A DNA stretch of 64,000 nucleotides from Candidatus Daviesbacteria bacterium (GCA_030699125.1 JAUYKM010000018.1:34884-98883), one strand, 5' to 3'. Shown: positions 4,716 through 60,466, counted from the first letter of the stretch. Numbers and translations: made by a program. The notes: a model not told the origin generated them from the letters alone.

Positions 4716-4985
4716 TTATAAAACCTTTTTGTAGAATCTTTTGTGTTTTGGTTTAGATTCTTTTTTAGAAGATACTTGCTCGGCTCCTTTTTCCAAAGTG
4801 GCAATTAAGTTTTGACTTTTTTTATCTTGAAACTTTTTGTCCATCCCCAAATCCAAAACATCATTTAATCTATCTAGAGCCCTTTTTAAATTCTTTAAAA
4901 TTAAATAAACCTGAAAACCGGTAATACTTAAGAATACGGACAAAAGTATAATTAAAAAAATTAGCCCTATTTGTAAAATATCCAT
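4716..4985 (-). CDS. Small membrane protein (N-terminal TM helix plus charged coiled tail)
   Basis: 89 aa, LIFLIILLSVFLSITGFQVYLIL followed by a K/E-rich tail. Tightly packed in the operon. Confidence 0.55.
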   Translation of the reverse strand: MDILQIGLIFLIILLSVFLSITGFQVYLILKNLKRALDRLNDVLDLGMDKKFQDKKSQNLIATLEKGAEQVSSKKESKPKHKRFYKKVL

Positions 4986-11211: not shown

Positions 11212-13536
11212 TTAAAAATTGCTGTCTCTTTTTTTGAATTTAGAGAATTTGGCTCTGGTTCTATCAAAAGGACCCTTGCTGCCAAAATCTCTTTTGGGAA
11301 ATCTGTCTCTTCTGGGGCGAAATCCATCTCTTCCGCTACCAAAAGGTCTTCTCTCACCTCTACCCATACCTTGTGGTCTTCCCTCAGACGGACGGAAGCG
11401 AGGTCTACTCTCAGTTTCCATCTTTCTATCTTCACCAAAAAGCATTGACAATCCTACCTTTCCTTCTGGAGAGACATCAGTTACTCTGACCTTGACTTCC
11501 TGTCCCTCAGAGACAACATCCTCTGCTTTCTCAACACGTCCCGGAGCCATCTGAGAAATATGCACCAGACCATCTTTACCAGGAGCAATTTCTACAAAAG
11601 CTCCGAACGGAGCCAATCTGACCACTTTACCCGTAAATTCATCTCCTATATTAATCTCCTTAAACATACCATTGATCGCATCCAAAGCCTGATCAACACT
11701 TTCACTCCTTACAGCCGAGACCATCACTGTACCATCATCCTCGATATCAATCTGAGCTCCTGTTTTATTAATAATAGAATTAATAGTCTTACCTCCTGAA
11801 CCAATTAACAGTCCAATCTCTTCCGGCTTAATATGTATAATCTCCACTCTGGGGGCATGGGGAGACAAGGGACCTGCTGATGGAATCACCTTCTCCATTT
11901 CTTCTAAGATTTTTAATCTGGCATTTTTACCTAATCTTAAAGCTTCCTCAATAATTTCAAAAGTTAATCCTTCTAATTTTGTATCCATTTGAATTGCGGT
12001 AATACCATTTTTAGTACCGGCCACTTTAAAATCCATTTCTCCATAAAAATCCTCCACTGCCCTCATATCTGTCACCACCTGGAATTTTCCACGTCCTGAG
12101 CCTGTCGAAGGATTATCATCGGAAAAAAGTCCCATGGCAATTCCGGCAACCGGGGCAATAAGTGGTACTCCAGCATTTAGAAGAGCTAGGGTGGTTGAAC
12201 AAACTGAGGCTTGAGAAGTTGAAGCATTGGCTGCCAAAACCTCCGATACTACCCTGATAGCATAGGGGAATGTATTCTCATCTGGAATAACAGACACCAT
12301 AGCTTTTTCCACCAAGGCCCCATGTCCTACGTCCCGTCTGTTGGGAGCACCAATCCTTTTTACCTCACCTACGGAAAAAGGATTAATACTCATATTATAG
12401 TGATGCATGAATCTTTTTTGCCTTTCTCCTTCCATGCCGTCTAATGTTTGCTGCAGAGACGGAGCACCAAGGGTGGCAACTGATAAAACTTGGGTATCAC
12501 CCCTTTGGAAAAGAGCTGATCCGTGGGTTCTGGGTAAAAGTCCCACCTCCATTGACAGAGGTCTCACCTCATCCATGGCTCTGCCATCAACTCTTTTGTC
12601 TTTTCCTAAGACTGTTTCATGTACAATCTCTTTAGCCACCTTATCGAAAATTCCGGAAATTATCTCGGCAGTTAAGGTCTCTTTATATTTTTCTGCCAAC
12701 TCTCTTTTAATCAGATTTCCTGTTGCTTCATGCCAGGGATGTTCATTATCAAATAAAGCAGCTTCAATCCTCTCTTTAGTCAGTTTAGTTACTTCCCCAA
12801 GCAAGGCTTCTTCCAAAGCATCTTCCAAATGTGAAATTTCTTGTTTATCCTTTCCTGCTTCCTTAGTAAATTCTTCAATTAGCTCAATAATTGGTTGGGC
12901 ACTTTTATGAGCTTCCTTAATTCCTTCAAAAACAACTGAATCATCTATTTGCTTGGCTCCTGTTTCTATCATGACCACTTTATTTTTACCTGAGGCCACC
13001 ACCAGATCCATATCCAGATGTTCCATCTGGGAGATGGTTGGATCAACTACTAGATTTCCTTCCTTACTGCCGATTCTTATTCCGGCAATAGGTCCATTCC
13101 AGGGAACAGAAGATATAGAAAGTGCAGCGGATGCTCCAATTAGACCTACCAAGTCAGGATCATTGTCTTGATCAATTGATAAAACAGTTAAAATTACCTG
13201 TACCTCATGCGCTTTAAAATCTTTAGGGAAAAGTGGCCTGATGGAGCGGTCTATTAATCTGCCTGTTAAAACTGCTTCATCAGTAGGTCTTGTTTCTCTT
13301 TTAATGAATCTGGATGAAGAAATCCTCCCTCCAGCATAATGTTTTTCCACAAATTCCACAGAGAGCGGAAAGTAGCCAATATCCTCCAGTAGTGGCTGGG
13401 TGGCCACAGTTGCTAAAATCACTGTTTCTCCCCATGACACTACAACAGATGCATCTGCTTGCAAAGCCAGCTTACCGGTCTCCAGTTTTAACTTTCGACC
13501 GTTTAAATCAATTTCTTTAGTTACCATTTTACTCAT
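11212..13536 (-). CDS. pnp: Polyribonucleotide nucleotidyltransferase (PNPase) with an R/G-rich C-terminal tail
   Basis: 774 aa. Two RNase PH domains plus KH and S1 domains, N-terminus MSKMVTKEIDLNGRKL, and a C-terminal RG-rich extension. Confidence 0.95.
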   Translation of the reverse strand: MSKMVTKEIDLNGRKLKLETGKLALQADASVVVSWGETVILATVATQPLLEDIGYFPLSVEFVEKHYAGGRISSSRFIKRETRPTDEAVLTGRLIDRSIRPLFPKDFKAHEVQVILTVLSIDQDNDPDLVGLIGASAALSISSVPWNGPIAGIRIGSKEGNLVVDPTISQMEHLDMDLVVASGKNKVVMIETGAKQIDDSVVFEGIKEAHKSAQPIIELIEEFTKEAGKDKQEISHLEDALEEALLGEVTKLTKERIEAALFDNEHPWHEATGNLIKRELAEKYKETLTAEIISGIFDKVAKEIVHETVLGKDKRVDGRAMDEVRPLSMEVGLLPRTHGSALFQRGDTQVLSVATLGAPSLQQTLDGMEGERQKRFMHHYNMSINPFSVGEVKRIGAPNRRDVGHGALVEKAMVSVIPDENTFPYAIRVVSEVLAANASTSQASVCSTTLALLNAGVPLIAPVAGIAMGLFSDDNPSTGSGRGKFQVVTDMRAVEDFYGEMDFKVAGTKNGITAIQMDTKLEGLTFEIIEEALRLGKNARLKILEEMEKVIPSAGPLSPHAPRVEIIHIKPEEIGLLIGSGGKTINSIINKTGAQIDIEDDGTVMVSAVRSESVDQALDAINGMFKEINIGDEFTGKVVRLAPFGAFVEIAPGKDGLVHISQMAPGRVEKAEDVVSEGQEVKVRVTDVSPEGKVGLSMLFGEDRKMETESRPRFRPSEGRPQGMGRGERRPFGSGRDGFRPRRDRFPKRDFGSKGPFDRTRAKFSKFKKRDSNF

Positions 13537-13571
13537 AAATTTTTTTAGGGGGTTTGGAAACTGTGGAAGAG

Positions 13572-13656
13572 ATAATTAGTCTTCAGCTTTCAGTCTTCAG
13601 TTATCAGATTTTTTGTTTCCCAGTCTGATAGCTGATAGCTGACGTCTGATTGCTAC
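13572..13656. repeat. Heptamer-periodic imperfect palindromic element A in the rpsO-pnp spacer (the pnp 5' leader). Its core is near-identical to element B at 40984..41061.
   Basis: On the minus strand it reads (NNNTCAG)n - A-rich loop - (CTGANNN)n - CTAATTAT. A 29-31 nt block ctgaagactgaaagctgaagactaattat is identical to element B in the same orientation relative to the downstream gene. Confidence 0.7.
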
Positions 13657-13688
13657 TTAACTCTTTGCAATCTCCAAAACCCTGCCCA

Positions 13689-13958
13689 CTATCTAGATAA
13701 ACCAAGCTTATTAATTACCATTGTATATCTTTCATTATCTTTTTTAAATAAGTATTGCAAAAGTCTTCTTCTTTTATTAACCATAGATAACAGCCCACGG
13801 CGTGAGTGTATATCGTGTGGATGTTCTTTTAAATGAGCAGTTAAATTCTTAATCTGTTCAGACAAAAGAGCAACCTGAACCTCAGGAGATCCGGTATCAC
13901 CGGACTTGGTGGCAAAACCCTTAATGATTTGCTGTTTTACTTTTGGATCAAGTGGCAT
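13689..13958 (-). CDS. rpsO: 30S ribosomal protein S15
   Basis: 89 aa, a typical S15 sequence. In the conserved rpsO-pnp arrangement. Confidence 0.95.
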
Positions 13959-14137: not shown

Positions 14138-14893
14138 TTAAGCTTTTTTGACTCCCTCAAAGCGACCACCTAAGTACGGATAGCGAGTATCCAGACTCCA
14201 GATCCAATAGACCCCCAAGCTGCCATCCGAATAGAAGCGGGCGCCGCCCACCTCACCCTTGCGGCGAGACCCAAGCAAACGAACCCAACCTGCTTTATCC
14301 AAACCTAATTCATCAAAATAATGGCCTGTTAGATCCTTACTGTTTTGTGAACCAATAATATAAGCTGTCAGTCTTTGGCCTTTCCAGTGATTTTGTTTTG
14401 CCAATTCTTCCAGATCTTTCCGGTTGGTTCCAGTGTAAGGGGTTTGCCAACCTGATTCAATATCAAACCAACCTCCTCTACTATCTGTGTGTTTAACTGG
14501 GGTTCCTGCTTTAACAACCCAACTACCCATTTGTGGATGCATCTTGCCCAATAAAATCAAACCTGCGGGTGTAGCTGTTAATTCTGATGGCATATATATC
14601 GGTGCTCTCGGAACTTGCAAATGTTCCATATCTACAATTTCATCTCGATGATAAGGACTATCTGGTACCTCAATCTTTAAACCAACTTTTGACCCTAATA
14701 CACTCCATCTAGTTCGCCAGTATTCAGTCACAACTTCTGGAGTGTGTGGTTTGGTTTTAAATTCTGCTACCGCCTGTTCAAGTAGACCCAGGGTTCTTTG
14801 GGATTCTTCTACAGCCTTAAGTTGGTCAAGCTCTACCAGTTCTCGTCTAAATGCTCCGTCTGCTTCTAGTAGCCTTTCTTTATGTTGCGTCAT
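14138..14893 (-). CDS. Hypothetical protein. Its GC content is markedly higher than its neighbours, making it a candidate horizontally acquired gene.
   Basis: 251 aa with an N-terminal coiled coil and a W/G/R-rich C-terminal domain (WFDIESGWQTPYTGTNRKDL...RFYSDGSLGVYWIWSLD). Local DNA is roughly 50% GC versus the mid-30s% around it, estimated by eye. Confidence 0.6.
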   Translation of the reverse strand: MTQHKERLLEADGAFRRELVELDQLKAVEESQRTLGLLEQAVAEFKTKPHTPEVVTEYWRTRWSVLGSKVGLKIEVPDSPYHRDEIVDMEHLQVPRAPIYMPSELTATPAGLILLGKMHPQMGSWVVKAGTPVKHTDSRGGWFDIESGWQTPYTGTNRKDLEELAKQNHWKGQRLTAYIIGSQNSKDLTGHYFDELGLDKAGWVRLLGSRRKGEVGGARFYSDGSLGVYWIWSLDTRYPYLGGRFEGVKKA

Positions 14894-24255: not shown

Positions 24256-24340
24256 GTCATTCTGAACGTAGTGAAGAATCTCTCAGTTTATCTGAGGAAC
24301 CTTGCATTCGCAAGAGATCCTTCGTTTCACTCAGGATGAC
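24256..24340 (-). other. Complex structured inverted-repeat element that starts at the grpE stop codon. Outer arms gtcatcctgagtgaa / ttcactacgttcagaatgac enclose two inner hairpins (cttgc-gaat-gcaag and ctcag-ataaa-ctgag).
   Basis: Read directly on the minus strand. Not followed by a U-tract. Lies immediately upstream of the SD of the small ORF. Confidence 0.5.
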
Positions 24341-24888
24341 ATTTCTCCTTCCCCAGATCCTTCGTCGCTGGATTGCTCCTCAGGATGATTATCTTGCTTC
24401 CGCCCGACAATCACTTGCGCTGGTCTTAAAACTTTTCCATTTAAATTATACCCTTTTCTAACAACTTCCAAAATACTATTCTCACCCTTGCCCGCCGAAG
24501 CTTCAGCGGAGGAGGGTTCACGAGTATCAACTGCCTCATGAAGGCTTGGATCAAATTGTCCCTCTTCCGGTATTTCATCCAACCCTTCCTGAGCTAAAAC
24601 CTGTTTAAATTCCTTGACTGCCAACTCTACTCCTTTAAACCAACCTGACTCCTTCTCCTGTTCACTTGTTCCACCCAAGGCTTGTTCTAAGTGATCCAGA
24701 GTTGGTATTAGCTTCCTTAACAATTCTGCCCCAACGTAGGCAACCATCTCTGAACGGCCTTCAGAAATTCTTCTCTCCAGATTCTGATAATCAGCTACTG
24801 CTCTTTTGAGCTGATTTTCCAAATCAGTTACTCTGGTTTGTAATTGTTCCAATTCCTCGTTTTTTTTATTATCTTGTTTCTTAGACAT
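24331..24888 (-). CDS. grpE: Nucleotide exchange factor GrpE
   Basis: GrpE coiled-coil and C-terminal domain. Start chosen at MSKKQDNKK (24886-24888); the ORF-track start at 24921 adds 11 hydrophobic residues. Confidence 0.85.
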   Translation of the reverse strand: MSKKQDNKKNEELEQLQTRVTDLENQLKRAVADYQNLERRISEGRSEMVAYVGAELLRKLIPTLDHLEQALGGTSEQEKESGWFKGVELAVKEFKQVLAQEGLDEIPEEGQFDPSLHEAVDTREPSSAEASAGKGENSILEVVRKGYNLNGKVLRPAQVIVGRKQDNHPEEQSSDEGSGEGEMSS

Positions 24889-24976
24889 AATGATTTGTAA
24901 CAAGTACAGTAAAGGTAACAAGGCACAAGTTATTTGTATTTTAACTTGTCACTTGTCACTTGTTACTAGTTACTTC

Positions 24977-25723
24977 TCATACCCTTCCTGCTTCACAAAC
25001 TAAATTTCTGACATATTTGACATAAGGCAACACAAGCGAAAAATTCATCCTGGCAGGACCGATTACTCCAATCACCCCGCCTTTTCCGGGAATGGCCGGA
25101 TTTATAGGTACAAACTCATACCTGGTAAAAACAAATCCTGTAGGAACCAAATCCTCATAGCCTAACTCTTCTCCAAAAAGAATATGGATTGGATCTGCTC
25201 CTTGAGCTTTGCCAATAATCTCGACTAACCTGGGGTTCTCATCAAATAAAGATAAAACCATTCTGGCTACATCAATATCATAAAATTCCGGCCAGTCCAA
25301 AATATTGGCTGCCCCGGCATAATATACCTGCCCTTCATCATCCCGGGCCAAACCTAATATTCCTAAGCGATTTGCCAAAGCTGAAACTGCCTCTTTTAAT
25401 AATTTTTCTTCTTGAGCTTTCTGCTGCCATAATTTCTCTTTGATCGAAACTTCGGCAGTTATCGGCAATTCCTTCTCTTTCATCAGTTCCGAGATATAAA
25501 GTCTCATTCCCATAGAAGTAGGCGTTCTGCCGGCTGAAGTATGCGGCTGTCTCAGATAGCCTCCTTCAGTCAGCTTTCCCATTTCAATTCTGATGGTGGC
25601 AGGGGAAACCCCCAGATCATACTTCCTTTCTATTATCTCTGAACCTACCGGTTCAGCTGATTCGATATATTCCTCAATAATTGCTTTTAAAAGTGCCTTT
25701 TGTCTATCGGTTAAATCAGACAT
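24977..25723 (-). CDS. hrcA: Heat-inducible transcription repressor HrcA
   Basis: HrcA N-terminal winged helix MSDLTDRQKALLKAIIEEY. Start chosen at this Met (25721-25723); the longer ORF to 25822 would overlap the CIRCE, the promoter and nadK. Confidence 0.85.
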   Translation of the reverse strand: MSDLTDRQKALLKAIIEEYIESAEPVGSEIIERKYDLGVSPATIRIEMGKLTEGGYLRQPHTSAGRTPTSMGMRLYISELMKEKELPITAEVSIKEKLWQQKAQEEKLLKEAVSALANRLGILGLARDDEGQVYYAGAANILDWPEFYDIDVARMVLSLFDENPRLVEIIGKAQGADPIHILFGEELGYEDLVPTGFVFTRYEFVPINPAIPGKGGVIGVIGPARMNFSLVLPYVKYVRNLVCEAGRV

Positions 25724-25725
25724 AG

Positions 25726-25752
25726 TTAGCAGTAATATACACCGAGTGCTAA
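25726..25752. promoter_or_regulatory. CIRCE operator (HrcA binding site) TTAGCAGTA-N9-GAGTGCTAA directly upstream of hrcA, overlapping a TTGACA-N17-TATATT promoter (minus sense)
   Basis: Right arm matches the consensus TTAGCACTC-N9-GAGTGCTAA perfectly; the left arm matches 7 of 9. -35 TTGACA at 25759..25764 (complement). The -10 sits inside the CIRCE spacer. Confidence 0.8.
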
Positions 25753-25791
25753 TATTTGTCAAGATAGTGTCTTTAGTAGTACCATTCCTGT

Positions 25792-26487
25792 ATGAAGATA
25801 CTCTTATTTGGTAACGATGCAAAAGATATAGAAGGATTGGTAAAAAAATTGGGCTTTGAGATAGTAAGCTCCAACCCGGATGTAATTATAAGCTATGGGG
25901 GAGATGGTACCCTTCTTTCCTCAGAAAGAGAATATCCAGGTATTCCCAAACTACCCATCAGAAATTCCCAGTTTTGCAATAAATGTGCTGAGCATGCAGA
26001 TGAACATTTGCTTTCACAATTTTTAGAAGATAAACCACAATTCAGAGAATATAAAAAGCTTCATACTAATATTGAAGGTAAAGATTTATACGCCTTAAAT
26101 GATTTTGTAGTCAGAAATGAACTACCCATGCATGCTATTAGATTTCAGATAGATGATGGTCAACTCTTAATCGGCGATGGAATAGTTGTGGCAACTCCCT
26201 TTGGCTCAACCGGTTATTTTAAAAGTATTTCTCAAAAAACTTTTGATACTGGATTTGGCTTAGCTTTTAACAATCTAACAGAAAAAAAAGAACCTTTATT
26301 TTTACAAGATAAAGATTTACTAACCTTTAAATTAGTTAGAGGTAAGGCTACCTTATCTTTTGATAATAGTGCTGATATTTTTACAATCGACGAGGGCTCT
26401 GAACTTGTGTTTAAATTATCAGACCATCTTGCCAAAATCTATGAACCCACCTCTTTGCGCTGCCCTAACTGCAAGGTCCAAAGATAG
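25792..26487 (+). CDS. nadK: NAD+ kinase
   Basis: 231 aa with the GGDGT motif (ISYGGDGTLL) and the NADK C-terminal domain. Confidence 0.8.
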   Translation: MKILLFGNDAKDIEGLVKKLGFEIVSSNPDVIISYGGDGTLLSSEREYPGIPKLPIRNSQFCNKCAEHADEHLLSQFLEDKPQFREYKKLHTNIEGKDLYALNDFVVRNELPMHAIRFQIDDGQLLIGDGIVVATPFGSTGYFKSISQKTFDTGFGLAFNNLTEKKEPLFLQDKDLLTFKLVRGKATLSFDNSADIFTIDEGSELVFKLSDHLAKIYEPTSLRCPNCKVQR

Positions 26488-29110: not shown

Positions 29111-30889
29111 TTATGATTTCAAAATACTCAAAAATGCCTCCTGGGGGATTTCGACTCTACCAATCATTTTCATCTTTTTCTTTCCCTTTTTCTGCTTCTC
29201 AAGCAGCTTATCTTTTCTGGTTCTATCCCCTCCATATAGCTTGGCTGTGACATCTTTTCTAAATGGTGAGATGGTTTCTCTGGCAATAATATTTCCTCCA
29301 ATTACTGCCTGAATTGCTATGGCAAAATTTTGCCTGGGCAACACTTCCTTTAATTTTTCCACCATTTTTCTTCCAAAACTTTCCGCCTTTTCCCGAACCA
29401 CAATGGTGGAAAGTGCATCCACTTTTTCTCCTGCCACCAAAATATCTAACCTTACTGCTTCCACCTCTCTATATTCTAAAAATTCCCAATCTAGCGAGGC
29501 GAAACCAGAGGAAACTGATTTTAGCCGATCATAAAAATTGGTAATCATCTCAGAAAGCGGCATTTCATACTTAAGTTCCACTTGAGTACCAAAATATTGA
29601 GTATTGATAAACTTCCCCCGTCTTTCTGTTACCAAATCCATTACATTACCAATAAAATTTTGTGGAATAAAAATTTTTAAAGATACCCAGGGTTCCTTAA
29701 CATTTTTCATAAGTGAGGGGTCAATTTCAGAAGGATTATGAATTAGCTTTCCCTCAATCTCATATTCCACTGAAGGGATAGTGGCAATCAAATCTACTCC
29801 CGCCTCAGTTGATAATCTTTCTTGGACAACCTCTGCATGCAGAAGACCCAAAAATCCACACCTAAAACCATTTCCTAAAGCCTGAGATGATTCCAACTCA
29901 TAAGATAAAGAGGGATCATTTAGTCTAAATTTTTCCAAAGCCTCTTTGGCTTCAATGTATGAATCCTGCTCGATGGGAAAAAGTCCTACATAAACCATAG
30001 GTTTTACCTCTTTGTACCCTGGAAGAGGTTCAACATCCAACTCAGTAGAAATAGTATCTCCTACTCTCACCTTATCCGAATCTTTTATACCAGTAGCAAT
30101 ATAGCCAATATCTCCTGCATAAAGTCCGTCATTTAAAGTTAGCTCCGGCGCAAAAAAACCAGTTTCTAAGATATGTCCCTCAGCCTTATTTTGCAGAAAA
30201 CAAATTTTTGCGTTAACTGGTGGCGTTTGACCTTCCATAATTCTCACCTGGGCAATCACTCCCTTAAAAGGATCGAAAAAACTGTCAAAGATTAATGCTT
30301 TCAATGGACACCCTTGGGGTGTATTTGTATTGACACCTGCGGATTTTGGGGCTGGGATACGCTCAATAATGGCTTTCAATAATTCCTCCACACCTTTTCC
30401 TGTTTTTCCAGATACAAGTAAAATCTCATCTTTATTAAACCCAAATGTTTCTATTAGTTGTTTTTTTGTGGATTCAATATCTGCATTTGGTAGATCAATT
30501 TTATTAATAACAGGAATTAAAGTCAGATTCTGCTCCAGTGCAGCCAGACCATGAGCTAAAGTCTGAGCCTGAATCCCCTGAGTCGCATCTACCAAAAGTG
30601 TGGCTCCCTCAACTGCTGCCAAAGCCCGAGATACTTCATACGAAAAATCCACATGGCCCGGGGTATCAATTAAGTTTAGGGTGTAGGGTATAGCGTCTAG
30701 GGTATAGCTAAGGCGCACTGGCGCGAGCTTAATGGTAATTCCCCGCTCCCGCTCCAATGCTAGAGAGTCCAGAAGCTGCGGCTTCAGTTTTTCCTTGGGG
30801 ATAGTGCCGGTAATTTCCAGCAGTCTGTCTGCCAGAGTGGATTTACCGTGATCAATGTGGGCAATGATGGAAAAATTGCGAATGTTCAT
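29111..30889 (-). CDS. lepA: Elongation factor 4 (LepA)
   Basis: 592 aa with NFSIIAHIDHGKSTLADR and DTPGHVDF. Contains a small in-frame tandem duplication YTLDAIP/YTLNLID (DNA tagggtatagc x2). Confidence 0.95.
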   Translation of the reverse strand: MNIRNFSIIAHIDHGKSTLADRLLEITGTIPKEKLKPQLLDSLALERERGITIKLAPVRLSYTLDAIPYTLNLIDTPGHVDFSYEVSRALAAVEGATLLVDATQGIQAQTLAHGLAALEQNLTLIPVINKIDLPNADIESTKKQLIETFGFNKDEILLVSGKTGKGVEELLKAIIERIPAPKSAGVNTNTPQGCPLKALIFDSFFDPFKGVIAQVRIMEGQTPPVNAKICFLQNKAEGHILETGFFAPELTLNDGLYAGDIGYIATGIKDSDKVRVGDTISTELDVEPLPGYKEVKPMVYVGLFPIEQDSYIEAKEALEKFRLNDPSLSYELESSQALGNGFRCGFLGLLHAEVVQERLSTEAGVDLIATIPSVEYEIEGKLIHNPSEIDPSLMKNVKEPWVSLKIFIPQNFIGNVMDLVTERRGKFINTQYFGTQVELKYEMPLSEMITNFYDRLKSVSSGFASLDWEFLEYREVEAVRLDILVAGEKVDALSTIVVREKAESFGRKMVEKLKEVLPRQNFAIAIQAVIGGNIIARETISPFRKDVTAKLYGGDRTRKDKLLEKQKKGKKKMKMIGRVEIPQEAFLSILKS

Positions 30890-32920: not shown

Positions 32921-32964
32921 TTTTCCCCTTTTCCCTTTACCCTTTTCCCTGGTAGAATATTCAT
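32921..32964 (+). repeat. Polypyrimidine heptamer tract (TTTTCCC-like x4) followed by TAGAAT 6 nt before the ATG of the pilN-like gene (leaderless-type promoter context)
   Basis: Sequence ttttcccc ttttccc tttaccc ttttccc tgg tagaat attc ATG, read directly. Confidence 0.5.
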
Positions 32965-33549
32965 ATGGCTACCAAAAATACTCCTAAATTGATTCTTAAT
33001 CTTGATCTTCTAAAACCTCAATCTTCTCCTTTGAAACTTCCTGTCAAATTACTAAAATGGTCACTTTCAACCGGCAGATATATTTTTATTGTGGTTGAAG
33101 GAATGGTACTAGTTGCCTTTATCACCAGATTTTTCTTGGACGCTCAACTGATAGATAAGACTGAAAAAATTGATCAACAAGTCCAGTTTATCAAATCTAA
33201 AACTTCCGATGAGATTTTAATCCGCCAAACTCAGATGAAACTCTCTACCATTAATGCTTTTTATAAAGACTTAGTGGATTATCCTCTGATTCTAAAAAAT
33301 ATCGCTGATCAAACGCCATTAAATGTCTCCATCTCTAACATCTTCATGGAAAAAGTAACCGGCAAAGTTAATATTTCAATCAGCGCCCAAGCTCAATCAA
33401 ACAATGATGTCTCATCCTTTGTGACGGGCTTAAGAGAATCCCAATTTTTTTCCGATGTCAGAGTAACTGGAGTTAATTTGGAACAAAATATCATCCGCTT
33501 TACTGTTACTGCACAATCACAAAACTTAGGAGAAGGAATAAGTCTATGA
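32965..33549 (+). CDS. Type IV pilus assembly PilN-like protein (short cytoplasmic N-terminus, TM helix, periplasmic domain)
   Basis: 194 aa bitopic protein. Translationally coupled (ATGA) to a PilO-like gene. Confidence 0.45.
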   Translation: MATKNTPKLILNLDLLKPQSSPLKLPVKLLKWSLSTGRYIFIVVEGMVLVAFITRFFLDAQLIDKTEKIDQQVQFIKSKTSDEILIRQTQMKLSTINAFYKDLVDYPLILKNIADQTPLNVSISNIFMEKVTGKVNISISAQAQSNNDVSSFVTGLRESQFFSDVRVTGVNLEQNIIRFTVTAQSQNLGEGISL

Positions 33550-34348: not shown

Positions 34349-35292
34349 CTCATTTTTTTGATAAGTTTAAGATCCCCACGCTACTTGGGTTGGGTATTCT
34401 TTTATCAGGGATAATTGCCGGAGTATTACTGACTTTAAACCAGCAAGTTTTTTTGACCAGAGCCACTCCCCAAATTGAACCAAAAAATATTACACTTTCA
34501 AATATTTCTGAAACCGGACTCACCATTTCTTGGGAAACATCTTCTGAAATAATATCATCCATCTCTTTCGGTCAAAACTCCCCTCAAGAAAAATTTGTCT
34601 CAGATGATCAGGATTTTGAAGGCCCCACTCTTCATCAAATCCATTATGTTAGTCTGAAGAACCTTTTTCCCAAAACGATCTATAAATATCAGATTACTTC
34701 CTCTAGTTTCAAATCAAAGGTAAGTGAATTCAAAACAGCTTCTCCCGCTTCTTCTCAAACAGGTTTTGGACCTATCATTGGTACTGTTTTGGATGGTGAA
34801 TCACCGCTTAGTGAGGGCGTTGTTTATTTAACTATTCCGCAGGCCAATATCCAATCATCTCTCATTAAAGAGTTTGGCAGTTTTTTAATTCCCCTAAATT
34901 CTATTCGTACAACTAACTTAGCTGATATCTATAATTTAACTGAGGAAACTGTGGCTAAAATTAAGGTAGTTTCACCCAAAGGAGAAGCTAGCGCCACTTT
35001 TAAATTGAGCCTTGCGGGCGTGCAACTTCCCCCTATGAAATTAGGTGAGAATTTAGATCTGATCATTATGCCAGAAATAAAACCTGAAGAAGCTTCTCCA
35101 TCAGCACAAGAGTTAATCCAATATGATTTAAATGATGACGGCAAAATTAATGCCGCAGATAATGCAGTTATTTTAAATAATTTTGGAAATCCGCCAGCTG
35201 GCGGACCTAAAGAAAAAAGAGCAGATTTAAATCAAGATGGAATTGTTGATGAAAAAGATCTTACTTTAATGAGTAAACAAATTAACCAGTAA
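34345..35292 (+). CDS. Membrane-anchored surface protein with a fibronectin type III-like domain and a C-terminal type I dockerin repeat pair
   Basis: 315 aa. FN3-like ITLSNISETGLTISWETSS...KYQITS. Dockerin repeats DLNDDGKINAADNAVILNNF and DLNQDGIVDEKDLTLMSKQI. Confidence 0.65.
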   Translation: MTHFFDKFKIPTLLGLGILLSGIIAGVLLTLNQQVFLTRATPQIEPKNITLSNISETGLTISWETSSEIISSISFGQNSPQEKFVSDDQDFEGPTLHQIHYVSLKNLFPKTIYKYQITSSSFKSKVSEFKTASPASSQTGFGPIIGTVLDGESPLSEGVVYLTIPQANIQSSLIKEFGSFLIPLNSIRTTNLADIYNLTEETVAKIKVVSPKGEASATFKLSLAGVQLPPMKLGENLDLIIMPEIKPEEASPSAQELIQYDLNDDGKINAADNAVILNNFGNPPAGGPKEKRADLNQDGIVDEKDLTLMSKQINQ

Positions 35293-35922
35293 AAATTCTG
35301 CCTGGTCTTTTTCTAGGAGTCCGCTTTTGATCTTAAAATCTATCTCTATAATTTTTTTATATAAATTTTTAATTTTTTCCAGATCAAATTTTTTCTTTTG
35401 TCTTTCCAGTTTTTCTTTCACAAATTGCGGAGCATTTTTTGGGGTTACTACTAAATTTCTTAATAAATAAAAAATCATGGTGATAAAATATTGAATTTCA
35501 AAGCCTGAGGATTTCAATCTATCTATATCCAGAAATGCTTTTTTATTACCTTCTGCTAAAGAATCCAGAAAAGGAAAAACAGATACCTCTCTTGCTTCCT
35601 CAAAAAACTCAATCTCTCCTTTTTTTTTCACCCATTCCATGATCGGCTTTTTAAAAGAGACTTCATGATCAAACCAAAAAATTAGTTGGTAGTTGGTAGT
35701 TGGTAGTTGGTAGTTGGGCAAAAAATCTTCTGGTGGATTTTCTAAGATGATCAGTTTCTCTTCCGAAAATAATAGATTGGTCATGAGAGCTGCATTAATA
35801 CTTTCTAAATCTGCCTCTTTTTCAAAAATCACCACATTATTGGAATCAAAATCTTTTTTAATATTAACTAACCTAGTTCTTGATGCATCAATTGCCGGGC
35901 CGTGGAGAAGATGGCTCTTCAT
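35266..35922 (-). CDS. Putative DNA polymerase III delta subunit (HolA-like). Contains a 7-bp tandem repeat.
   Basis: 218 aa, weak HolA-like N-terminus MKSHLLHGP..LIILENPPE. Low-confidence product call. Confidence 0.35.
   Translation of the reverse strand: MKSHLLHGPAIDASRTRLVNIKKDFDSNNVVIFEKEADLESINAALMTNLLFSEEKLIILENPPEDFLPNYQLPTTNYQLIFWFDHEVSFKKPIMEWVKKKGEIEFFEEAREVSVFPFLDSLAEGNKKAFLDIDRLKSSGFEIQYFITMIFYLLRNLVVTPKNAPQFVKEKLERQKKKFDLEKIKNLYKKIIEIDFKIKSGLLEKDQAEFLLVNLFTH
35684..35711. repeat. Tandem 7-bp repeat (AGTTGGT)x4 inside the HolA-like CDS (encodes NYQLPTTNYQL)
   Basis: agttggt agttggt agttggt agttggg, read directly. The unit length is not a multiple of 3. Confidence 0.8.
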
Positions 35923-38597: not shown

Positions 38598-39053
38598 TTA
38601 GTATTTTTTCATAAAAGGACTGCAACTTTTTAGTTTTTTACCAAATGCTCTATCAATGAATCTTCTATCCACATACTTAGACTTCTCAAAATCTTCTCTG
38701 ACCTGCTGGTATGCTTCAAGCTCTTCATCGCCTGCGAAACCACAAACTGAATTATGCCCCCCTTCCATTAATACAATTGCCTGGCTTAAATATAGTGGCC
38801 CTGCCAAAGTGTATGTTTTACCACTTCCCCCTTTCAAATCCATTCTATCTTTATGCAACTTTGCATATTGAAGAGTACTTTCCTCTCGTAAACGCTCCAA
38901 TATTGTTTGTGGCCGATCTAGGGGGGACTGTTGCGGAGTAGGCTCAGGAGTTGGAGATGCAGTCGGAGTCACTTCACCTGATAAAACAGGTTGGCAACTC
39001 ATTAACAATAAGGCTATTCCTGCTAATCTTGGTACTAGACATTCTTTACTCAT
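38598..39053 (-). CDS. Lipoprotein of unknown function
   Basis: 151 aa. Signal peptide with lipobox LLMSC, then a P/T-rich linker. Confidence 0.55.
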   Translation of the reverse strand: MSKECLVPRLAGIALLLMSCQPVLSGEVTPTASPTPEPTPQQSPLDRPQTILERLREESTLQYAKLHKDRMDLKGGSGKTYTLAGPLYLSQAIVLMEGGHNSVCGFAGDEELEAYQQVREDFEKSKYVDRRFIDRAFGKKLKSCSPFMKKY

Positions 39054-39081: not shown

Positions 39082-40983
39082 TTGTCAAAGAAAGTTCCCG
39101 ATGTTAAGATAATGTCCGTGTCAACTCTCCTTTCTGATCTAAATTCAGATCAACAACAAGCTGTTAAACAAACTGAAGGCCCGGTTTTAATTTTGGCTGG
39201 TGCCGGCTCCGGCAAAACTAAAGTTTTAACATACAGGGTGGCTTATTTAATTTCCGAAAAGAAAATCCCTCCAGAAAATATTCTTACATTGACATTTACA
39301 AATAAGGCAGCCGGAGAGATGATGGATCGGATCCGCCGACTCATCACTCAGTACTCATCACTTAGCACTCAACCAGTCATGGGCACATTTCACTCATTTT
39401 GCGCCAAAATTTTGCGCCGTGAAGGTAAAGTTTTAGGACTCCCCCCGGGCTTTGCCATTTATGATGAGTCTGATGCGCTAGATGCCATCAAAGAAGCCAT
39501 GGGAAATATTAATATTCCCATTCAGAAAACCTCCCCTTCTGCTGTAAGAAATACTATCTCCGGAGCCAAAAATGAGTTGATCTCCAGTTTGGAATATCCA
39601 AAATATGCCCGTGGTTTTTTCCAGGAGCAAGTTGCCAAAATTTATTTAGAATATCAAAAAATTTTAGAAAGAAATCATGCTTTAGATTTTGATGATCTGC
39701 TGCTTAAAGTCATCCGGCTTTTTCAGACTGAGCCTACAATTTTAACTAGGTATCAAATCCAGTTTCGTTATATTTTAATTGATGAATATCAGGACACCAA
39801 TAGTGCCCAATATTTAATCTCTAAATACCTGGCAAATCGTCATAAAAATATCTGCGTGGTAGGTGATGCCAGCCAGTCGATTTACTCCTTTAGAGGTGCA
39901 GATTTTAGAAATATTGTTAATTTTGAAAAAGATTATCCTAATGTCAAGATTTTTAATCTGGAGCAAAATTATCGATCCACCCAAAATATTTTGGATGCTG
40001 CTCATAGCGTTATTTCCAAAAATAAATCTCACCCCATCTTAAAGCTTTGGACGCAAAAAGAGGGAGGAGAAAAGATAGAAGTAGTAGAAATAAGAAATGA
40101 GATAGAAGAAGCCTTATTTATTCTTTCTCAGCTTAAAAAACCTTTTTCAAATTATGCCATCCTTTATAGAACTAATGCTCAATCCCGCTCTTTAGAGGAA
40201 CAATTTTTAAAATCTGGTATCCCTTACAGATTAGTGGGGGGGGTTTCTTTTTATGCACGGAAGGAAATCAAAGATGTGTTGGCATATTTGAGACTGATAC
40301 AAAATCCTGATGATTCTGTCTCTAAAAAACGCGCTGAAAAAATTGGCAAGGGTAGGCTGAATAAATTGATGGAATTTTATACTGAAATATCAAATAATCT
40401 GGGTGCACATTCCACGCTAGAGCTGCTTGATTTGATTTTACAAAAAACCGGCTATTTAGCTTATCTTGATGATGGCACAGATGAAGGGAAAAACAGAGTG
40501 GAAAATGTTAAAGAATTAAAATCTGTAGCTGAGGAATTTCCTAATTTAGTGGAATTTTTGGAAAACGTGGCTCTTGTCGAAGCTGCTGATACACCGACCC
40601 ACCGGAAAACCGATACACTGAATAAAGATGCTGTAACTTTAATGACTCTACATAGCGCCAAAGGTTTGGAATTCCCCACCATTTTTATGATTGGCATGGA
40701 GGAGGGATTATTCCCTCATTCCAGATCCATGCTTGATGTAAGGGAACTAGAAGAGGAGAGAAGGCTCTGCTATGTAGGGATCACCCGGGCCAAAGATAAA
40801 TTATACCTAACTTATACCAGACAAAGACTTTACTTTGGCACCAGATCTAATAATTTAGTTTCTAGATTCCTGTCGGATATCCCCGAACACCTTATCAGCT
40901 CCAATGCCACTTTTAAAGATTCTGACCAATTTTTGGATGACGTGGATGTTGGAATAGACCAGGAAGAATGGTTAAATACATAA
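39082..40983 (+). CDS. uvrD: ATP-dependent DNA helicase UvrD/PcrA family
   Basis: 633 aa. Walker A AGAGSGKT and helicase motifs DEYQDTN and VGDASQSIY. Confidence 0.9.
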   Translation: MSKKVPDVKIMSVSTLLSDLNSDQQQAVKQTEGPVLILAGAGSGKTKVLTYRVAYLISEKKIPPENILTLTFTNKAAGEMMDRIRRLITQYSSLSTQPVMGTFHSFCAKILRREGKVLGLPPGFAIYDESDALDAIKEAMGNINIPIQKTSPSAVRNTISGAKNELISSLEYPKYARGFFQEQVAKIYLEYQKILERNHALDFDDLLLKVIRLFQTEPTILTRYQIQFRYILIDEYQDTNSAQYLISKYLANRHKNICVVGDASQSIYSFRGADFRNIVNFEKDYPNVKIFNLEQNYRSTQNILDAAHSVISKNKSHPILKLWTQKEGGEKIEVVEIRNEIEEALFILSQLKKPFSNYAILYRTNAQSRSLEEQFLKSGIPYRLVGGVSFYARKEIKDVLAYLRLIQNPDDSVSKKRAEKIGKGRLNKLMEFYTEISNNLGAHSTLELLDLILQKTGYLAYLDDGTDEGKNRVENVKELKSVAEEFPNLVEFLENVALVEAADTPTHRKTDTLNKDAVTLMTLHSAKGLEFPTIFMIGMEEGLFPHSRSMLDVRELEEERRLCYVGITRAKDKLYLTYTRQRLYFGTRSNNLVSRFLSDIPEHLISSNATFKDSDQFLDDVDVGIDQEEWLNT

Positions 40984-41061
40984 AGAGCTATCAGTCATCA
41001 GACGTCAGTCGTCAGACAATCAGAAATCTGAAAGCTGAAGACTGAAAGCTGAAGACTAATT
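40984..41061. repeat. Heptamer-periodic imperfect palindromic element B immediately upstream of the 3D-domain gene ATG. Paralogous to element A at 13572..13656.
   Basis: Plus strand reads (NNNTCAG)x5 - aaat - (CTGAAAG/CTGAAGA)x4 - CTAATT - ATG. The last ~31 nt are identical to element A read toward pnp. Confidence 0.7.
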
Positions 41062-41754
41062 ATGGAAAGATATCTGGGAATCTTATTAATAATAGGACTC
41101 ACCATTTTTGCCGGTTCTTTTTGGCAAAATCCCGTTATTCTGGGGGAATCCACAGGCCCTTCCCAAATTCTGCCAATTAGTCAGCCTGTTCTCACTCAAT
41201 CTGCCTTTAGTGAAAAATTGGAAGAAGATATAGAAATAATTCCTAAAAAAACAGTCTATGAGGATGACCCGGAGACTGAAGCAGGAATAGAAAAAATATT
41301 AGAAGAAGGCGAAGATGGTAAAAGGGTTAAAATTATCAAAATTACCTATTATAAAGATGGCGATGAATATGATAGACAAATTGTTTCTACTGAAACCACG
41401 CCAGCCAAAAATAAAATCATTTCAAGAGGCACTAAAATTATCTGGAAAACCTTAGCTACCGCTGATGGAGAAATTAGGTATTGGAAAAAATTACGGGTCT
41501 ATGCCACTCATTATGATTCCAGATGTCCAGGATGTAATGAATGGACAGCCATTGGTATGAGAGCCGGCAAAGGCGTTATTGCTGTTGATCCCAAAGTTAT
41601 ACCCTTAAGATCTAAAGTTTATATTCCGGAATACGGGATGGCCATAGCCGGAGATACTGGCGGAGCCATTAAAGGAAATATTATAGATTTAGGCTTTGAT
41701 GATGCCAGAACAGCCGGCTGGAGAGCAAAATTTGTAGATATTTATCTCTTATAG
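41062..41754 (+). CDS. G5 domain + 3D (MltA-like) domain cell-wall protein (YabE/RpfB-like)
   Basis: 230 aa. Signal/TM helix, a G5-like segment, and a 3D domain YATHYDSRCPGCNEWTAIGMRAGKGVIAVDPKVIP...AGDTGGAIKGNIID. Confidence 0.75.
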   Translation: MERYLGILLIIGLTIFAGSFWQNPVILGESTGPSQILPISQPVLTQSAFSEKLEEDIEIIPKKTVYEDDPETEAGIEKILEEGEDGKRVKIIKITYYKDGDEYDRQIVSTETTPAKNKIISRGTKIIWKTLATADGEIRYWKKLRVYATHYDSRCPGCNEWTAIGMRAGKGVIAVDPKVIPLRSKVYIPEYGMAIAGDTGGAIKGNIIDLGFDDARTAGWRAKFVDIYLL

Positions 41755-44924: not shown

Positions 44925-45953
44925 ATGGAACTGCGAGTGATTCCGCCGGGCCAAAAATATCAATATAATAAATTTGTCACTCATGTAATCCAATCTTGGC
45001 AATGGGGAGATTTCAGAAAAGATTTAGGCTTACCGGTGTTAAGATATGGCATTTATCACAAAGGTCAAATATCACGGGTATTTCAGCTGACCTTACATAA
45101 AATTCCCTTTACTAAGAAATATGTTGGCTATCTGCCAAAGGGTCCCATGATAGATCAAGAATTAGTCCAAGCGTTGAAACAAATAGGTAAACAGGAAAAT
45201 TGTGCTTTTATTAAAGTTGAACCCGATGTGAAACTACCAACTACCAACCATCCGCTTCGCGAGGCGAGCCAACTACTACCAACTGAATTCATTAAATCTC
45301 CCAAATCTCTTTTTACCAAATATAATTTTGTTTTGGATATTACTAAATCAGAAGAAGAACTTTTAAAAAATACGCACCCAAAAGTAAGATATAACATCCG
45401 TCTGGCCCAAAAATATAAAGTAACAATTAAGCAAGGATTTAACGAAAAGGCTTTTGAAACATATTTAAAACTATATTTTCAAACTGTTAAAAGGCAGGGT
45501 TATCTGGGACATAATGAAACTTATCATAAAAAGGTTTGGGGTATTTTAAAAAATGCCAATATGGCAAGGCTTCTTATCGCCTACTACAAAGATGAACCCT
45601 TGGCTTGTTGGATGCTTCTTAATTTTCACGATACCCTCTATTATCCTTATGGCGGGTCCTCAATGGAGTTTAGAAATGTGATGGCCTCAAACCTGTTGGC
45701 TTGGGAAGCAATTCTTTTGGGTAAAAAAATGGGGCTGAAGAAATTTGATATGTGGGGAGCTTTAGGACCCAATGCTTCCCCCAAAGACCCTTGGTTCGGA
45801 TTCCACAAATTCAAACAGGGATATGGAGGGGAGTTGGAAGAATATATTGGCACTTATGATTATGTTTTTGACTGGCCGCTCTATTTAACATTTACTGCTA
45901 TAGATAAATTAACCCCGCTAAAAGTTTTCTTGTTAAAATTGCTAAAGAAATAA
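44925..45953 (+). CDS. FemAB-family peptidoglycan interpeptide bridge aminoacyltransferase
   Basis: 342 aa, FemX-like N-terminus and overall length. Contains ctaccaactaccaacc (LPTTN). Confidence 0.7.
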   Translation: MELRVIPPGQKYQYNKFVTHVIQSWQWGDFRKDLGLPVLRYGIYHKGQISRVFQLTLHKIPFTKKYVGYLPKGPMIDQELVQALKQIGKQENCAFIKVEPDVKLPTTNHPLREASQLLPTEFIKSPKSLFTKYNFVLDITKSEEELLKNTHPKVRYNIRLAQKYKVTIKQGFNEKAFETYLKLYFQTVKRQGYLGHNETYHKKVWGILKNANMARLLIAYYKDEPLACWMLLNFHDTLYYPYGGSSMEFRNVMASNLLAWEAILLGKKMGLKKFDMWGALGPNASPKDPWFGFHKFKQGYGGELEEYIGTYDYVFDWPLYLTFTAIDKLTPLKVFLLKLLKK

Positions 45954-50900: not shown

Positions 50901-51281
50901 ATGATCAAATTTCTGCCAAAATTGTTGCTGCCGCTAATTTTTTGGGGCAGTTTTATTTATGTAGTCTTACAAATTCCCTATCCTGAGTCTTTTTCTCAAG
51001 CCAGCCCTCAGCAACTTTTATATTTTTTTGTCAGTTTATTTTTTGCCATCACTTTGACTTTAAATATTTTTTTAAATTTTATTCTTTTGTCAGCATCAGT
51101 TGCTATTGGTATAATTCTTCTTCTTATTTTAAGGGCAATGGAATTTTTAAATATTGTCACCACCATTATGGTATTGATTGCAGTAGGTTTGCTTTTTTCC
51201 TATTTTGGGAAAATCAAAGGTAAAAAATTGACTTTAAATTCAAAAATCCCTAAACTGACACATCTAAGGAGAAGCAGATGA
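50901..51281 (+). CDS. Small multi-pass membrane protein of unknown function
   Basis: 126 aa, three predicted TM helices. 4-nt overlap with metG. Confidence 0.45.
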   Translation: MIKFLPKLLLPLIFWGSFIYVVLQIPYPESFSQASPQQLLYFFVSLFFAITLTLNIFLNFILLSASVAIGIILLLILRAMEFLNIVTTIMVLIAVGLLFSYFGKIKGKKLTLNSKIPKLTHLRRSR

Positions 51282-59668: not shown

Positions 59669-60466
59669 CTATTTTTTCTGGGTATAGGCTGAGGAAACAT
59701 ACCCTTCAGTACCGTCAGGAAGTCTCACTCTATCCCATCCTGATAATTCCTCTAGCAGTATCAGCGTATCCCCGGGATTAGCTCTGGCAATTTCTTTTGA
59801 AGTAGTTGTCGGTCTTTCTCTCACTCTCAAAAAATCAGTCGGAGTATTGGTAATGGTGACTTGTTCAGTTTGGCTAATAATGGGAGTTGGAATATTAGTC
59901 AAATCCGCCTCAGATAAGGCCAAATCAGCTGAGATAGTCAGAGAAAATCCTTGTGGTAGAGTAGCTTTGATACTTCTTTTAAGGTAACTGGAACGGCTAA
60001 TTAGAATGGTGCGTTCTCCACTTTCTAAATTAATACTGATGGGGGTTTGACCATAGCTTTTACCATCTACTTCTATATCTGCTCCCGATGGATTAGAAAT
60101 AATTGTCATTCCTCTACCTTTCTCCAAAGTTAAAATTTCACCTGCTTGAGAGGTGGGATCATCTGATAATTCTCTATTAATAACAGTTAAAGTACCGGCA
60201 GTCAGTTTAATTTTTCCTTGCCATAAGGATTTATCTTTTTCTATTCTAATCAAATACTCTTTTGCTAAGAGTTCTTTATTTTCATAAGGAGTTTTACCCA
60301 CTTCTTGATTATCCAGAAAAACAACTGCCTCGGTCGGATTAGACATTATAGAAATTCCGCTGCGTGGTTTAATACCTAAAAAAATTTCGGTAAGAGCAGG
60401 CGTGAAACGAATTACCAATATTAATAAACTTAATAAAATTAAGACAAAAAATAATATTTTTTTCAT
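59669..60466 (-). CDS. PEGA-domain surface protein (two PEGA repeats, N-terminal TM helix)
   Basis: 265 aa. PEGA repeats SIMSNPTEAVVFLDNQEVGKTPY and MTIISNPSGADIEVDGKSYGQTP. Confidence 0.7.
   Translation of the reverse strand: MKKILFFVLILLSLLILVIRFTPALTEIFLGIKPRSGISIMSNPTEAVVFLDNQEVGKTPYENKELLAKEYLIRIEKDKSLWQGKIKLTAGTLTVINRELSDDPTSQAGEILTLEKGRGMTIISNPSGADIEVDGKSYGQTPISINLESGERTILISRSSYLKRSIKATLPQGFSLTISADLALSEADLTNIPTPIISQTEQVTITNTPTDFLRVRERPTTTSKEIARANPGDTLILLEELSGWDRVRLPDGTEGYVSSAYTQKK

Follow-up and report, generated by a model that had tools for sequence, protein, structure and literature searches.

A heptad-periodic palindrome inserted between uvrD and a G5/3D gene of Candidatus Daviesbacteria, and the dispersed class of gene-junction repeats to which it belongs

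Positions 40984-41061 of a 64,000-nucleotide stretch of Candidatus Daviesbacteria bacterium DNA (GCA_030699125.1, JAUYKM010000018.1:34884-98883; hereafter the window) separate the stop codon of a UvrD/PcrA-like helicase gene from the start codon of a gene for a protein with G5 and 3D domains, and consist wholly of a palindromic element built from 7-nt units. This element is here called copy B; a second one, copy A, lies between rpsO and pnp. Comparison with related sequences shows copy B to be an insertion acquired in a recent ancestor of the species-level lineage; it is neither a terminator nor a promoter nor a leader evolved for the G5/3D gene. Judged by its sequence, copy B is a member of a dispersed palindromic family of about 70-80 nt whose arms hold about four 7-nt units each. 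The explanation to which we give somewhat better than an even chance is that a dispersed palindrome, similar to repetitive extragenic palindromic (REP) sequences and miniature inverted-repeat transposable elements (MITEs), inserted at a formerly coupled junction, where its hairpin keeps stop and start together. The class behaves like a selfish or semi-domesticated repeat of the REP/MITE type, and its heptad architecture appears to be a new form of this kind of palindromic repeat, widespread and barely described; the main interest lies in this class and not in copy B itself.

A recent insertion at the uvrD|G5-3D junction

The uvrD-like open reading frame (ORF) has 633 codons and ends in a TAA at 40981-40983, followed directly by agagcta. 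Copy B has the layout (NNNTCAG)x5, aaat, (CTGANNN)x4, ctaatt, ATG and occupies the entire gap from the uvrD-like stop to the G5/3D start. Its TCAG boxes begin at 40991, 40998, 41005, 41012 and 41020, the first four 7 nt apart and the fifth after 8 nt; its CTGA boxes begin at 41028, 41035, 41042 and 41049, at a spacing of exactly 7 nt, and are followed by aga, ctaatt and the ATG at 41062. This layout agrees with the initial annotation, which had described the 78-nt gap as entirely made up of a second copy of a periodic element, oriented to its downstream gene as copy A is to pnp; both copies are in the sense orientation. The annotation had further placed the end of the element 0-2 nt before the ATG, which is correct for the conserved ctaatt terminus adjoining the start codon and incorrect for the last CTGA unit, which ends 6 nt before it. 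Tandem Repeats Finder reports periods of 7 and 14 at 40991-41057 and at 13578-13642, the two copies have CTGAAGACTGAAAGCTGAAGACTAATTAT in common, and TCAGN3TCAGN3TCAG matches 8 times in the window, always inside copy A or B, with 0 matches in 100 dinucleotide-preserving shuffles. TGA is present in all three reading frames of the 3' arm of copy B.

Orthologous junctions were retrieved through homologues of the G5/3D protein, itself 100% identical to a Candidatus Daviesbacteria protein in a homology search; the identities that follow are those of the protein relative to the window. The junction reads TAATG in L386-L388 (80%), TAGATG in L389 and L123-L126 (79-80%), TGAgATG in L128-L131 (78%) and TAAcattATG in L127 (79%). 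Altogether the element-free junctions comprise seven distinct sequences from relatives of about 74-82% identity, in all of which stop and start overlap, touch or stand at most 4 nt apart. Only the relatives at 95% (L121, L122) carry the 78-nt element, with the same unit count as in the window and two A-to-C changes, both in the 3' arm. The TAA, 78 nt and ATG of the window and its 95% relative are thus filled sites, set against empty sites elsewhere. Because the stop and start codons of the other relatives abut so tightly, the ancestral junction was coupled and the element was gained within the species-level lineage. Three relatives at 79% yielded no copy of the element in about 20 kb each (about 60 kb in total). 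At this locus, the reading of a recent insertion tolerated at a translationally coupled junction can be taken as settled.

A dispersed family in low-GC genomes

In a second Daviesbacteria genome (JACPDA010000004.1, locus L063), two copies are found in sense orientation within a type IV pilus operon, one at pilT|pilC and one between a pilin gene and a prepilin peptidase gene, each spanning the distance from stop codon to ATG. The 64 kb of the window contain 2 copies; in the L063 genome, a stretch of 30 kb contains 3. An orientation-specific pattern scan of metagenomes found more low-GC copies, at dnaG|rpoD (L330), between an unnamed gene and smpB (L346, L348), and at pilin|pilD (L366), pilB|pilT (L302), rpmE|prfA (L338) and oppC|oppD (L327). 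Elements of this family precede pnp, rpoD, pilC, pilD, smpB, prfA and oppD. Thirteen copies from nine different operon junctions were aligned and give the consensus TAGCTATCAGTCATCAGnCGTCAGTCnTCAGACT ... AAAAGTCTGAnAGCTGAAGACTGAAGGCTGATGACTATT with 4+4 units; their arms are near-identical and their loops vary in length and sequence. Copy B and the dnaG|rpoD copy in L330 have 33 identical nt of 5' arm, agctaTCAGtcaTCAGacgTCAGtcgTCAGacaa, spacer bases included, despite different loops and different neighbouring genes, and 29 nt of the same arm are identical at pilT|pilC in L063. Between same-direction genes in loci with a GC content of at most 0.45, 11 elements are sense and 2 antisense; the four copies of the window and L063 are all sense. 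Arm sequence common to non-orthologous sites, together with filled and empty sites and a patchy distribution, therefore points to a copied, mobile-like element. Most low-GC copies are flanked by TA, and a TA target-site duplication was considered on this ground; it fits the low-GC copies and was rejected as not general for the class.

A link to RAYT transposases was also considered and rejected. The only Y1_Tnp gene among the loci examined (L063, 1824-2474; PF01797, 27.8 bits) lies 1 kb from an element, has its own, different flanking palindrome, GATTACACCCCAAGGGTGTAATC, in place of heptads, and has no homologue in 3.1 Mb of loci. This IS200-like Y1 transposase gene, set between two identical GATTACACCCCAAGGGTGTAATCGGAGGTT palindromes (L063, 1761-2518), is REP/RAYT-like or IS200/IS605-like and unrelated to the heptads.

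Occurrence and anatomy of the class

The general design of the class is AG-Y-NN-(TCAG-Y-NN)n, loop, (NN-R-CTGA)n-NN-R-CT. A two-arm pattern of three TCAG at 7-nt spacing, 4-34 nt and three CTGA contains 24 fixed bases, for which we calculate a chance expectation of about 0.07 matches in 596 Gb under uniform base composition. The search for further copies that the initial annotation had proposed was productive: with one genome per species, the scan returned at least 120 loci, and contigs of uncultured phages gave at least 120 more. Among the genome matches listed are Acidobacteriota, Gemmatimonadota, Planctomycetota, Nitrospirota, Chloroflexota, Bacteroidota, Omnitrophota, Elusimicrobia, Chlamydiota and others, as well as Deltaproteobacteria-type lineages and bacteria of the candidate phyla radiation (CPR). 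The phage contigs hold at least 120 loci with TCAG -> CTGA as against 9 with the reversed order CTGA -> TCAG (an excess of at least 13-fold), and 3, 5 and 2 loci with GACT -> AGTC, TGAC -> GTCA and ATCG -> CGAT, respectively. The core and its head-to-head polarity are therefore specific, and are not accounted for by a general requirement for a hairpin. A polar, sequence-specific heptad design thus recurs at gene junctions far above chance.

In a 34-kb phage contig of GC 0.6 (IMGVR_UViG_3300045936_000120; L155, L172, L173), elements number at least 20 and occupy nearly all gene junctions; searches for cultured-phage relatives of this contig, or for annotated features, gave no match. Its palindromes are of the form TCAGC/GCTGA and have a common asymmetric loop motif, C-T/C-AAAC-C-GCAAG, whose orientation, judged by eye, seems to match that of the genes on either side.

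Anatomy was derived from 360 non-redundant elements. In a logo of the 720 element ends, the bases just before the first TCAG are A in 78%, G in 86% and Y in 81%, and further out the only conserved base is the T of the low-GC set at position -6 (62%, vs 26% in the high-GC set), where TA also merely extends the palindrome. The tetranucleotide GTAG is present only in a minority of low-GC copies. Whatever the register, the first base of the spacer is paired in 81-88% of cases, so that the constant block is of 5 nt, TCAG-Y / R-CTGA. The other two spacer bases are Watson-Crick paired in 41% and 28%, the same values being obtained when the arms are slid by 1 or 2 units. The number of units per arm peaks sharply at four (208 of 360 5' arms), with three the next most common number and more than five rare, and the arms are equal in unit number in 49% of the elements. 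Strict TCAG-Y register, free dinucleotides, a preferred count of 4+4 and fixed polarity together suggest a sequence-specific reader.

Position relative to genes and translation signals

Positions relative to genes were counted on heuristic gene calls. None of the 126 elements of the genome set lies inside a gene, an absence that is partly forced, because three CTGA heptads per strand close all six reading frames. Provision of stops in all six frames was considered as a function and rejected, since it explains the absence inside genes and leaves the polarity unexplained: the reversed order would serve equally, yet is rare. In the genome and phage sets together, element-bearing gaps are between same-direction genes in 182 cases, convergent genes in 31 and divergent genes in 19, and the median distance is 5 nt from stop codon to element and 17 nt from element to start codon. 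Slightly over half (51%) of the same-direction element-bearing gaps keep at most 30 nt besides the element, although gaps that short account for only 2.4% of the bases in same-direction gaps that have no element. Where a genome uses Shine-Dalgarno sites, they are located after the element.

Within the window, 47 of 62 genes (long ORFs) are without a Shine-Dalgarno motif, and many have TAnAAT-N6-ATG, the arrangement of leaderless mRNAs, seen for example at ORFs 29111-30889, 38598-39053, 44925-45953, 50901-51281 and 59669-60466. This pattern suggests that leaderless mRNAs may be widespread in this Daviesbacteria genome, in which case the internal cistrons, with few Shine-Dalgarno motifs, would depend on coupling.

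A predicted hairpin at the formerly coupled junction

The predicted RNA fold of copy B has an energy of -28.2 kcal/mol (z = -3.7), a stability reached by 0 of 200 shuffles, and copy A with its flanks (Table 1) is likewise more stable than any of 200 shuffles. Both folds are interrupted hairpins. In the minimum-energy fold of copy B, the CAUAA that contains the uvrD stop pairs with the UUAUG that contains the start codon, in agreement with the suggestion of the initial annotation that a hairpin could involve the initiation region. Within the low-GC family, 4 of 19 consensus pairs have compensatory changes, a weak signal. A scan of 40700-41300 found no terminator-like or promoter-like site, the stem being followed by aattATG without a U-tract. 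Rfam 15 gave no match in the window at the gathering score and none on the elements of 18 loci; the sole match was Acido-Lenti-1 in L024, away from the element, and a permissive E-value search returned noise only. No RNase III signature motif was found in the window, for which a 64-kb piece is uninformative.

In the mechanism that we propose, the element would be transcribed within the operon mRNA and its arms would fold back, turning the inserted 78 nt into a compact imperfect hairpin with the uvrD UAA and the next AUG at the base of the stem. A ribosome terminating on uvrD would then melt the stem base and expose the AUG, and translational coupling would outlive the insertion, with downstream initiation still, and perhaps strictly, dependent on upstream translation. 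In a genome mostly without Shine-Dalgarno sites, which would rely on leaderless or coupled initiation, an insertion of 78 nt would break coupling unless it were folded away; the hairpin model thus accounts for both the tolerance and the placement, since tolerance at a coupled junction would follow from the hairpin holding the stop and start codons together. The hairpin may double as a site of mRNA 3' stability, protection or processing, as in REP and Correia elements. A precedent is provided by genes 25 and 38 of phage T4, whose Shine-Dalgarno site and AUG are brought together across a bridging hairpin.

Several observations weigh against the explanation as a whole. A means by which the elements could move, such as a transposase or a target-site duplication, was not identified, and the TA flanks are limited to the low-GC family, where they are indistinguishable from an extension of the palindrome. 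The pairing of stop and start is present in the minimum-energy structure only and is absent from the centroid. In copies A and B alike, the antisense strand gives the more stable RNA fold; an RNA-level strand test of fold energies and purine content gave no consistent bias, and there is no sense/antisense composition bias at the variable positions across the whole class. The two spacer bases are no better paired in register than out of it, and stem stability is therefore not the conserved property. Lastly, the strict TCAG-Y register, the 4+4 preference and the excess over the reversed order point to a sequence-specific reader, which the hairpin model does not supply.

A wider reading, which we put forward as doubtful, is that the TCAG-Y heptad palindromes of the various phyla, CPR bacteria and phages form a single, widely transferred cistron-boundary system with a conserved reader, which would recognize the strict 7-nt register and the fixed head-to-head polarity. 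This role could fall to a nuclease or recombinase that mobilises the elements, or to an RNA- or DNA-binding multimer. If true, the system would offer control of coupling, processing or gene-module recombination between cistrons.

Alternative explanations

An array for protein binding, on DNA or on single-stranded nucleic acid, is the main alternative, though one that we consider unlikely. Here a multimer would read one TCAG-Y box every 7 nt, with about four boxes per arm arranged head to head. Each heptad has five fixed positions and two that vary freely and do not pair in register; arms most often have 4 units and seldom more than 5; the terminal AG...CT is kept; and there is no overall sense/antisense asymmetry. 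All of this would suit a protein, as would the phage counts by arrangement (at least 120 loci as against 9 reversed and 2-5 with cores of the same composition). The 7-nt period was read by the initial annotation as an argument against protein binding; this argument is weak, for the pattern of five fixed and two free positions fits a protein at least as well as a hairpin. Proteins that bind repeated boxes are also known: omega of plasmid pSM19035, a ribbon-helix-helix protein, binds contiguous 7-bp heptads, and the sites of ParG are 4-bp boxes set apart by spacers. Candidates for the reader could be the end-binding protein of a mobilising enzyme, a ribbon-helix-helix operator or centromere binder, or a HutP-like ring-shaped RNA binder with a 7-nt register. 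The same layout was taken for global-regulator sites by the authors who described it in Geobacter metallireducens (PMC2700814). Set against these points, no candidate protein was found, a single reader for so many phyla is hard to name, and sites that lie in housekeeping operons across many phyla, and in some phages at nearly all junctions, would be odd for an operator or centromere. The low-GC family is, moreover, polar relative to transcription.

It is quite improbable that the elements arose by local growth only, that is, by 7-nt replication slippage at small palindromes with templated correction of the arms, and with neither movement nor function. A period of 7 is the sole tandem period (among periods of 5 to 11 nt) in the Daviesbacteria loci examined, the apex of the rpsO-pnp hairpin has 0, 2+2 or 4+4 TCAG units or other heptads depending on the lineage, and other heptad cores occur in the window, even in frame within genes. 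Heptamers are, besides, the commonest long simple repeats in prokaryotes according to the summary of Mrazek (2007) given in PMC4679880, a rank that lends the idea some general support. Yet the site of copy B has 0-4 nt and no starter palindrome in relatives, and 29-33 nt of arm, including the nominally variable positions, are identical at unrelated junctions. Slippage would give identical units and not five fixed and two varied positions, and the core and polarity are specific across phyla. Near-identical elements at non-orthologous loci with filled and empty sites, already partly seen, also argue against purely local growth.

The initial annotation had considered control evolved for the downstream gene, and a cis-regulatory RNA dedicated to the G5/3D gene, such as a translational operator, a thermometer or a riboswitch-like leader, would agree with a hairpin that adjoins the ATG, can pair with it and is significantly stabler than shuffled sequence. 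We consider this very improbable, since the comparison of junctions largely refutes it: the element is missing upstream of the orthologue in all relatives below 95% identity, where stop and start abut, the same element stands at unrelated junctions before pnp, rpoD, pilC, pilD, smpB, prfA and oppD, and there is no Rfam match. That copy B is an intrinsic, possibly bidirectional, uvrD terminator, as in the combined terminator and leader once suggested, is credited with next to no probability, because the stable hairpin right after the stop codon lacks a T-run after its stem, the terminator scan is empty, the ancestral junction was a coupled stop and start, members of the family lie within pilus, dnaG-rpoD and opp operons, and in some phages there is hardly a junction without one.

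Copy A and other heptad arrays in the window

Copy A lies in sense orientation between rpsO (13689-13958) and pnp (11212-13536) on the minus strand. The outer rpsO-pnp hairpin around it is kept in all Daviesbacteria compared, as GATTTGGGGATTG.AAAGAGTTAAGTAGC ... GCTAATTACCTCTT.CACAGTTTCCAAATCC, and recalls the E. coli pnp leader, which is processed by RNase III. The apex differs between lineages: it is TAGC-aaaga-GCTA only in L384 (0 TCAG units), has 2+2 TCAG/CTGA units round a small inner hairpin in the L063 genome (L382, L383), has 4+4 units in the window and in L381, and in L385 is made of four nnnATCG units opposite four ACGATnn units. Because of these differences, TCAG units must be gained, lost and homogenised over time, and the apex of the hairpin is a permissive place for heptad units. 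The variation in unit number anticipated by the initial annotation is hence real across lineages at rpsO-pnp and was not seen between close relatives, there being no difference in unit count between the window and either L121/L122 (95%) or L381 (97%); copy A is identical in the latter.

All tandem arrays in the Daviesbacteria loci examined have a period of 7, among periods of 5 to 11. A third heptad-periodic hairpin in the window is formed by (GACAAGT)n facing (ACTTGTn)n at 24900-24985, between ORFs 24977-25822 and 24331-24921, with an RNA fold of -27.6 kcal/mol. Simpler arrays are (TTTTCCC)x4 at 32922-32950, which lies between divergent genes, about 15 nt before the start codon (ATG) of ORF 32965-33549, and (TAGGGTA)x4.4 at 30677-30707, within ORF 29111-30889. 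A holA-like minus-strand ORF (35266-35922) contains an in-frame (CCAACTA)x5 at 35683-35717, which encodes PNYQLPTTNYQL in a loop of the DNA polymerase III delta-like protein; at the matching position of the protein, relative L123 has a different heptamer array, CTATACC, of about 3.8 units (4754-4780), and the site looks like an intragenic hot spot for heptamer arrays. In the FemAB-like ORF 44925-45953, AACTACC / CCAACTA arrays stand either side of a GC-rich mini-palindrome, cgcttcgcgaggcg, at 45232-45290; this part of the protein is a hypervariable loop bounded by two conserved motifs, KVEPD and FIKSPK. Relative L121, 94% identical, is sharply different exactly there, and at the equivalent site (14329-14397) the heptamers of L127 are different ones, AATGGAC / AATTnTC. 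The PNPase encoded by pnp continues for about 70 residues past the S1 domain, in a C-terminal tail rich in R, G, F and P.

Table 1. Coordinates of the heptad-periodic elements in the window, their parts and the genes flanking copy B
Feature	Coordinates	Strand	Description
Copy B, whole intergenic element	40984..41061	+	agAGCTA, 5 TCAG units, aaat loop, 4 CTGA units, CT-aatt; periodic
5' arm of copy B	40986..41023	+	terminal AGCTA then TCAGtca TCAGacg TCAGtcg TCAGacaa TCAG
Loop of copy B	41024..41027	+	aaat; from sequence and fold
3' arm of copy B	41028..41057	+	CTGAaag CTGAaga CTGAaag CTGAaga CT
CATAA with uvrD-like TAA stop	40979..40983	+	pairs with TTATG 41060-41064 (holds the G5/3D ATG) in the minimum-energy fold
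UvrD/PcrA-like helicase gene, upstream	39082..40983	+	Pfam UvrD-helicase/UvrD_C on orthologues
G5 plus 3D domain protein gene, downstream	41062..41754	+	PF07501, PF06725
Copy A	13578..13654	-	4+4 TCAG/CTGA units, 17-nt loop; apex of the rpsO-pnp intergenic hairpin
Long outer hairpin, rpsO-pnp intergenic region	13540..13690	-	-49.8 kcal/mol, z = -4.6; conserved among Daviesbacteria
Third heptad-periodic hairpin, core ACAAGT/ACTTGT	24900..24985	-	fills the junction of two same-strand genes; z = -3.7

Significance and relation to known repeat systems

A dedicated reader or mobiliser, if there is one, would make the heptad palindromes a new class of small DNA element, mobile or regulatory, and could also account for the overrepresentation of heptanucleotide repeats that has long been noted in prokaryotes. 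For the annotation of CPR and phage genomes the elements carry a practical warning, in that they close all six frames and mark true gene ends.

In the literature searched, two reports only are relevant (Aklujkar et al. 2009; MacGregor 2015), and the design was noticed in passing in one Geobacter genome. The 'class 3 global regulator binding sites' of Geobacter metallireducens are paired arrays of five tandem heptanucleotides, MTYCTGA, on opposite strands; eight pairs were listed, located downstream of one gene and upstream of the next, and they were guessed, without test, to be IHF/HU-type sites (Aklujkar et al. 2009, PMC2700814). Matched by that paper's description only, they have the same architecture and core as the elements reported here; unlike these, they are described for one genome only. 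In marine Beggiatoaceae, cyanobacteria and Bacteroidetes, TAACTGA direct repeats are found just upstream of starts and translational control by them has been proposed (MacGregor 2015, PMC4679880). Both these arrays and the short tandemly repeated repetitive (STRR) heptamers of cyanobacteria resemble the present class in being intergenic tandems of CTGA-bearing 7-nt units with stops in all three frames, and the TAACTGA arrays are also sense and placed just before start codons without a Shine-Dalgarno site. They differ in being direct, with only one inverted set reported in that genome, in having no predicted fold and in consisting of identical units. Heptanucleotide repeats in general, whether of the STRR kind or long simple sequence repeats (LSSRs), have in common with the palindromes their head-to-tail 7-nt units, which in the palindromes of the window show as the exact 7-nt spacing of TCAG and CTGA.

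REPs are co-transcribed and affect mRNA stability and translation. Like REPs and their composites (BIMEs, REPINs), the heptad elements are short and imperfect palindromes that occur in many copies and only outside genes, and the REPs of E. coli similarly favour same-direction or convergent gaps, often within 15 nt of the upstream stop (PMC12306157). That survey and a second one (PMC3733652) make no mention of heptad palindromes. REPs have no internal 7-nt period, and bear a GTAG or CGTC tag in place of the AG-Y-NN-TCAG terminus seen here; REPs and REPINs are mobilised by RAYT Y1 transposases, whereas no RAYT is linked to the heptad elements in the loci examined.

Correia/NEMIS elements of Neisseria and other MITEs are small palindromic insertions at gene boundaries, with filled and empty sites, which are co-transcribed and form inverted-repeat hairpins that RNase III can process. 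The arms of the heptad elements are likewise inverted arrays, with filled and empty sites at uvrD|G5-3D and TA at both ends in the low-GC family; a TA duplication is, unlike in these systems, unsupported for the heptad class as a whole. Correia elements lack a heptad substructure; they measure 100-155 bp and their inverted ends 26 bp. The mycobacterial interspersed repetitive units (MIRUs), finally, are intercistronic operon repeats that are oriented with transcription and touch the flanking stop and start codons, built as direct tandem units of 46-101 bp with small ORFs and neither palindromic nor heptad-based. The heptad elements are like MIRUs in being intercistronic within operons, sense-oriented and in contact with stop and start, and unlike them in being palindromic.

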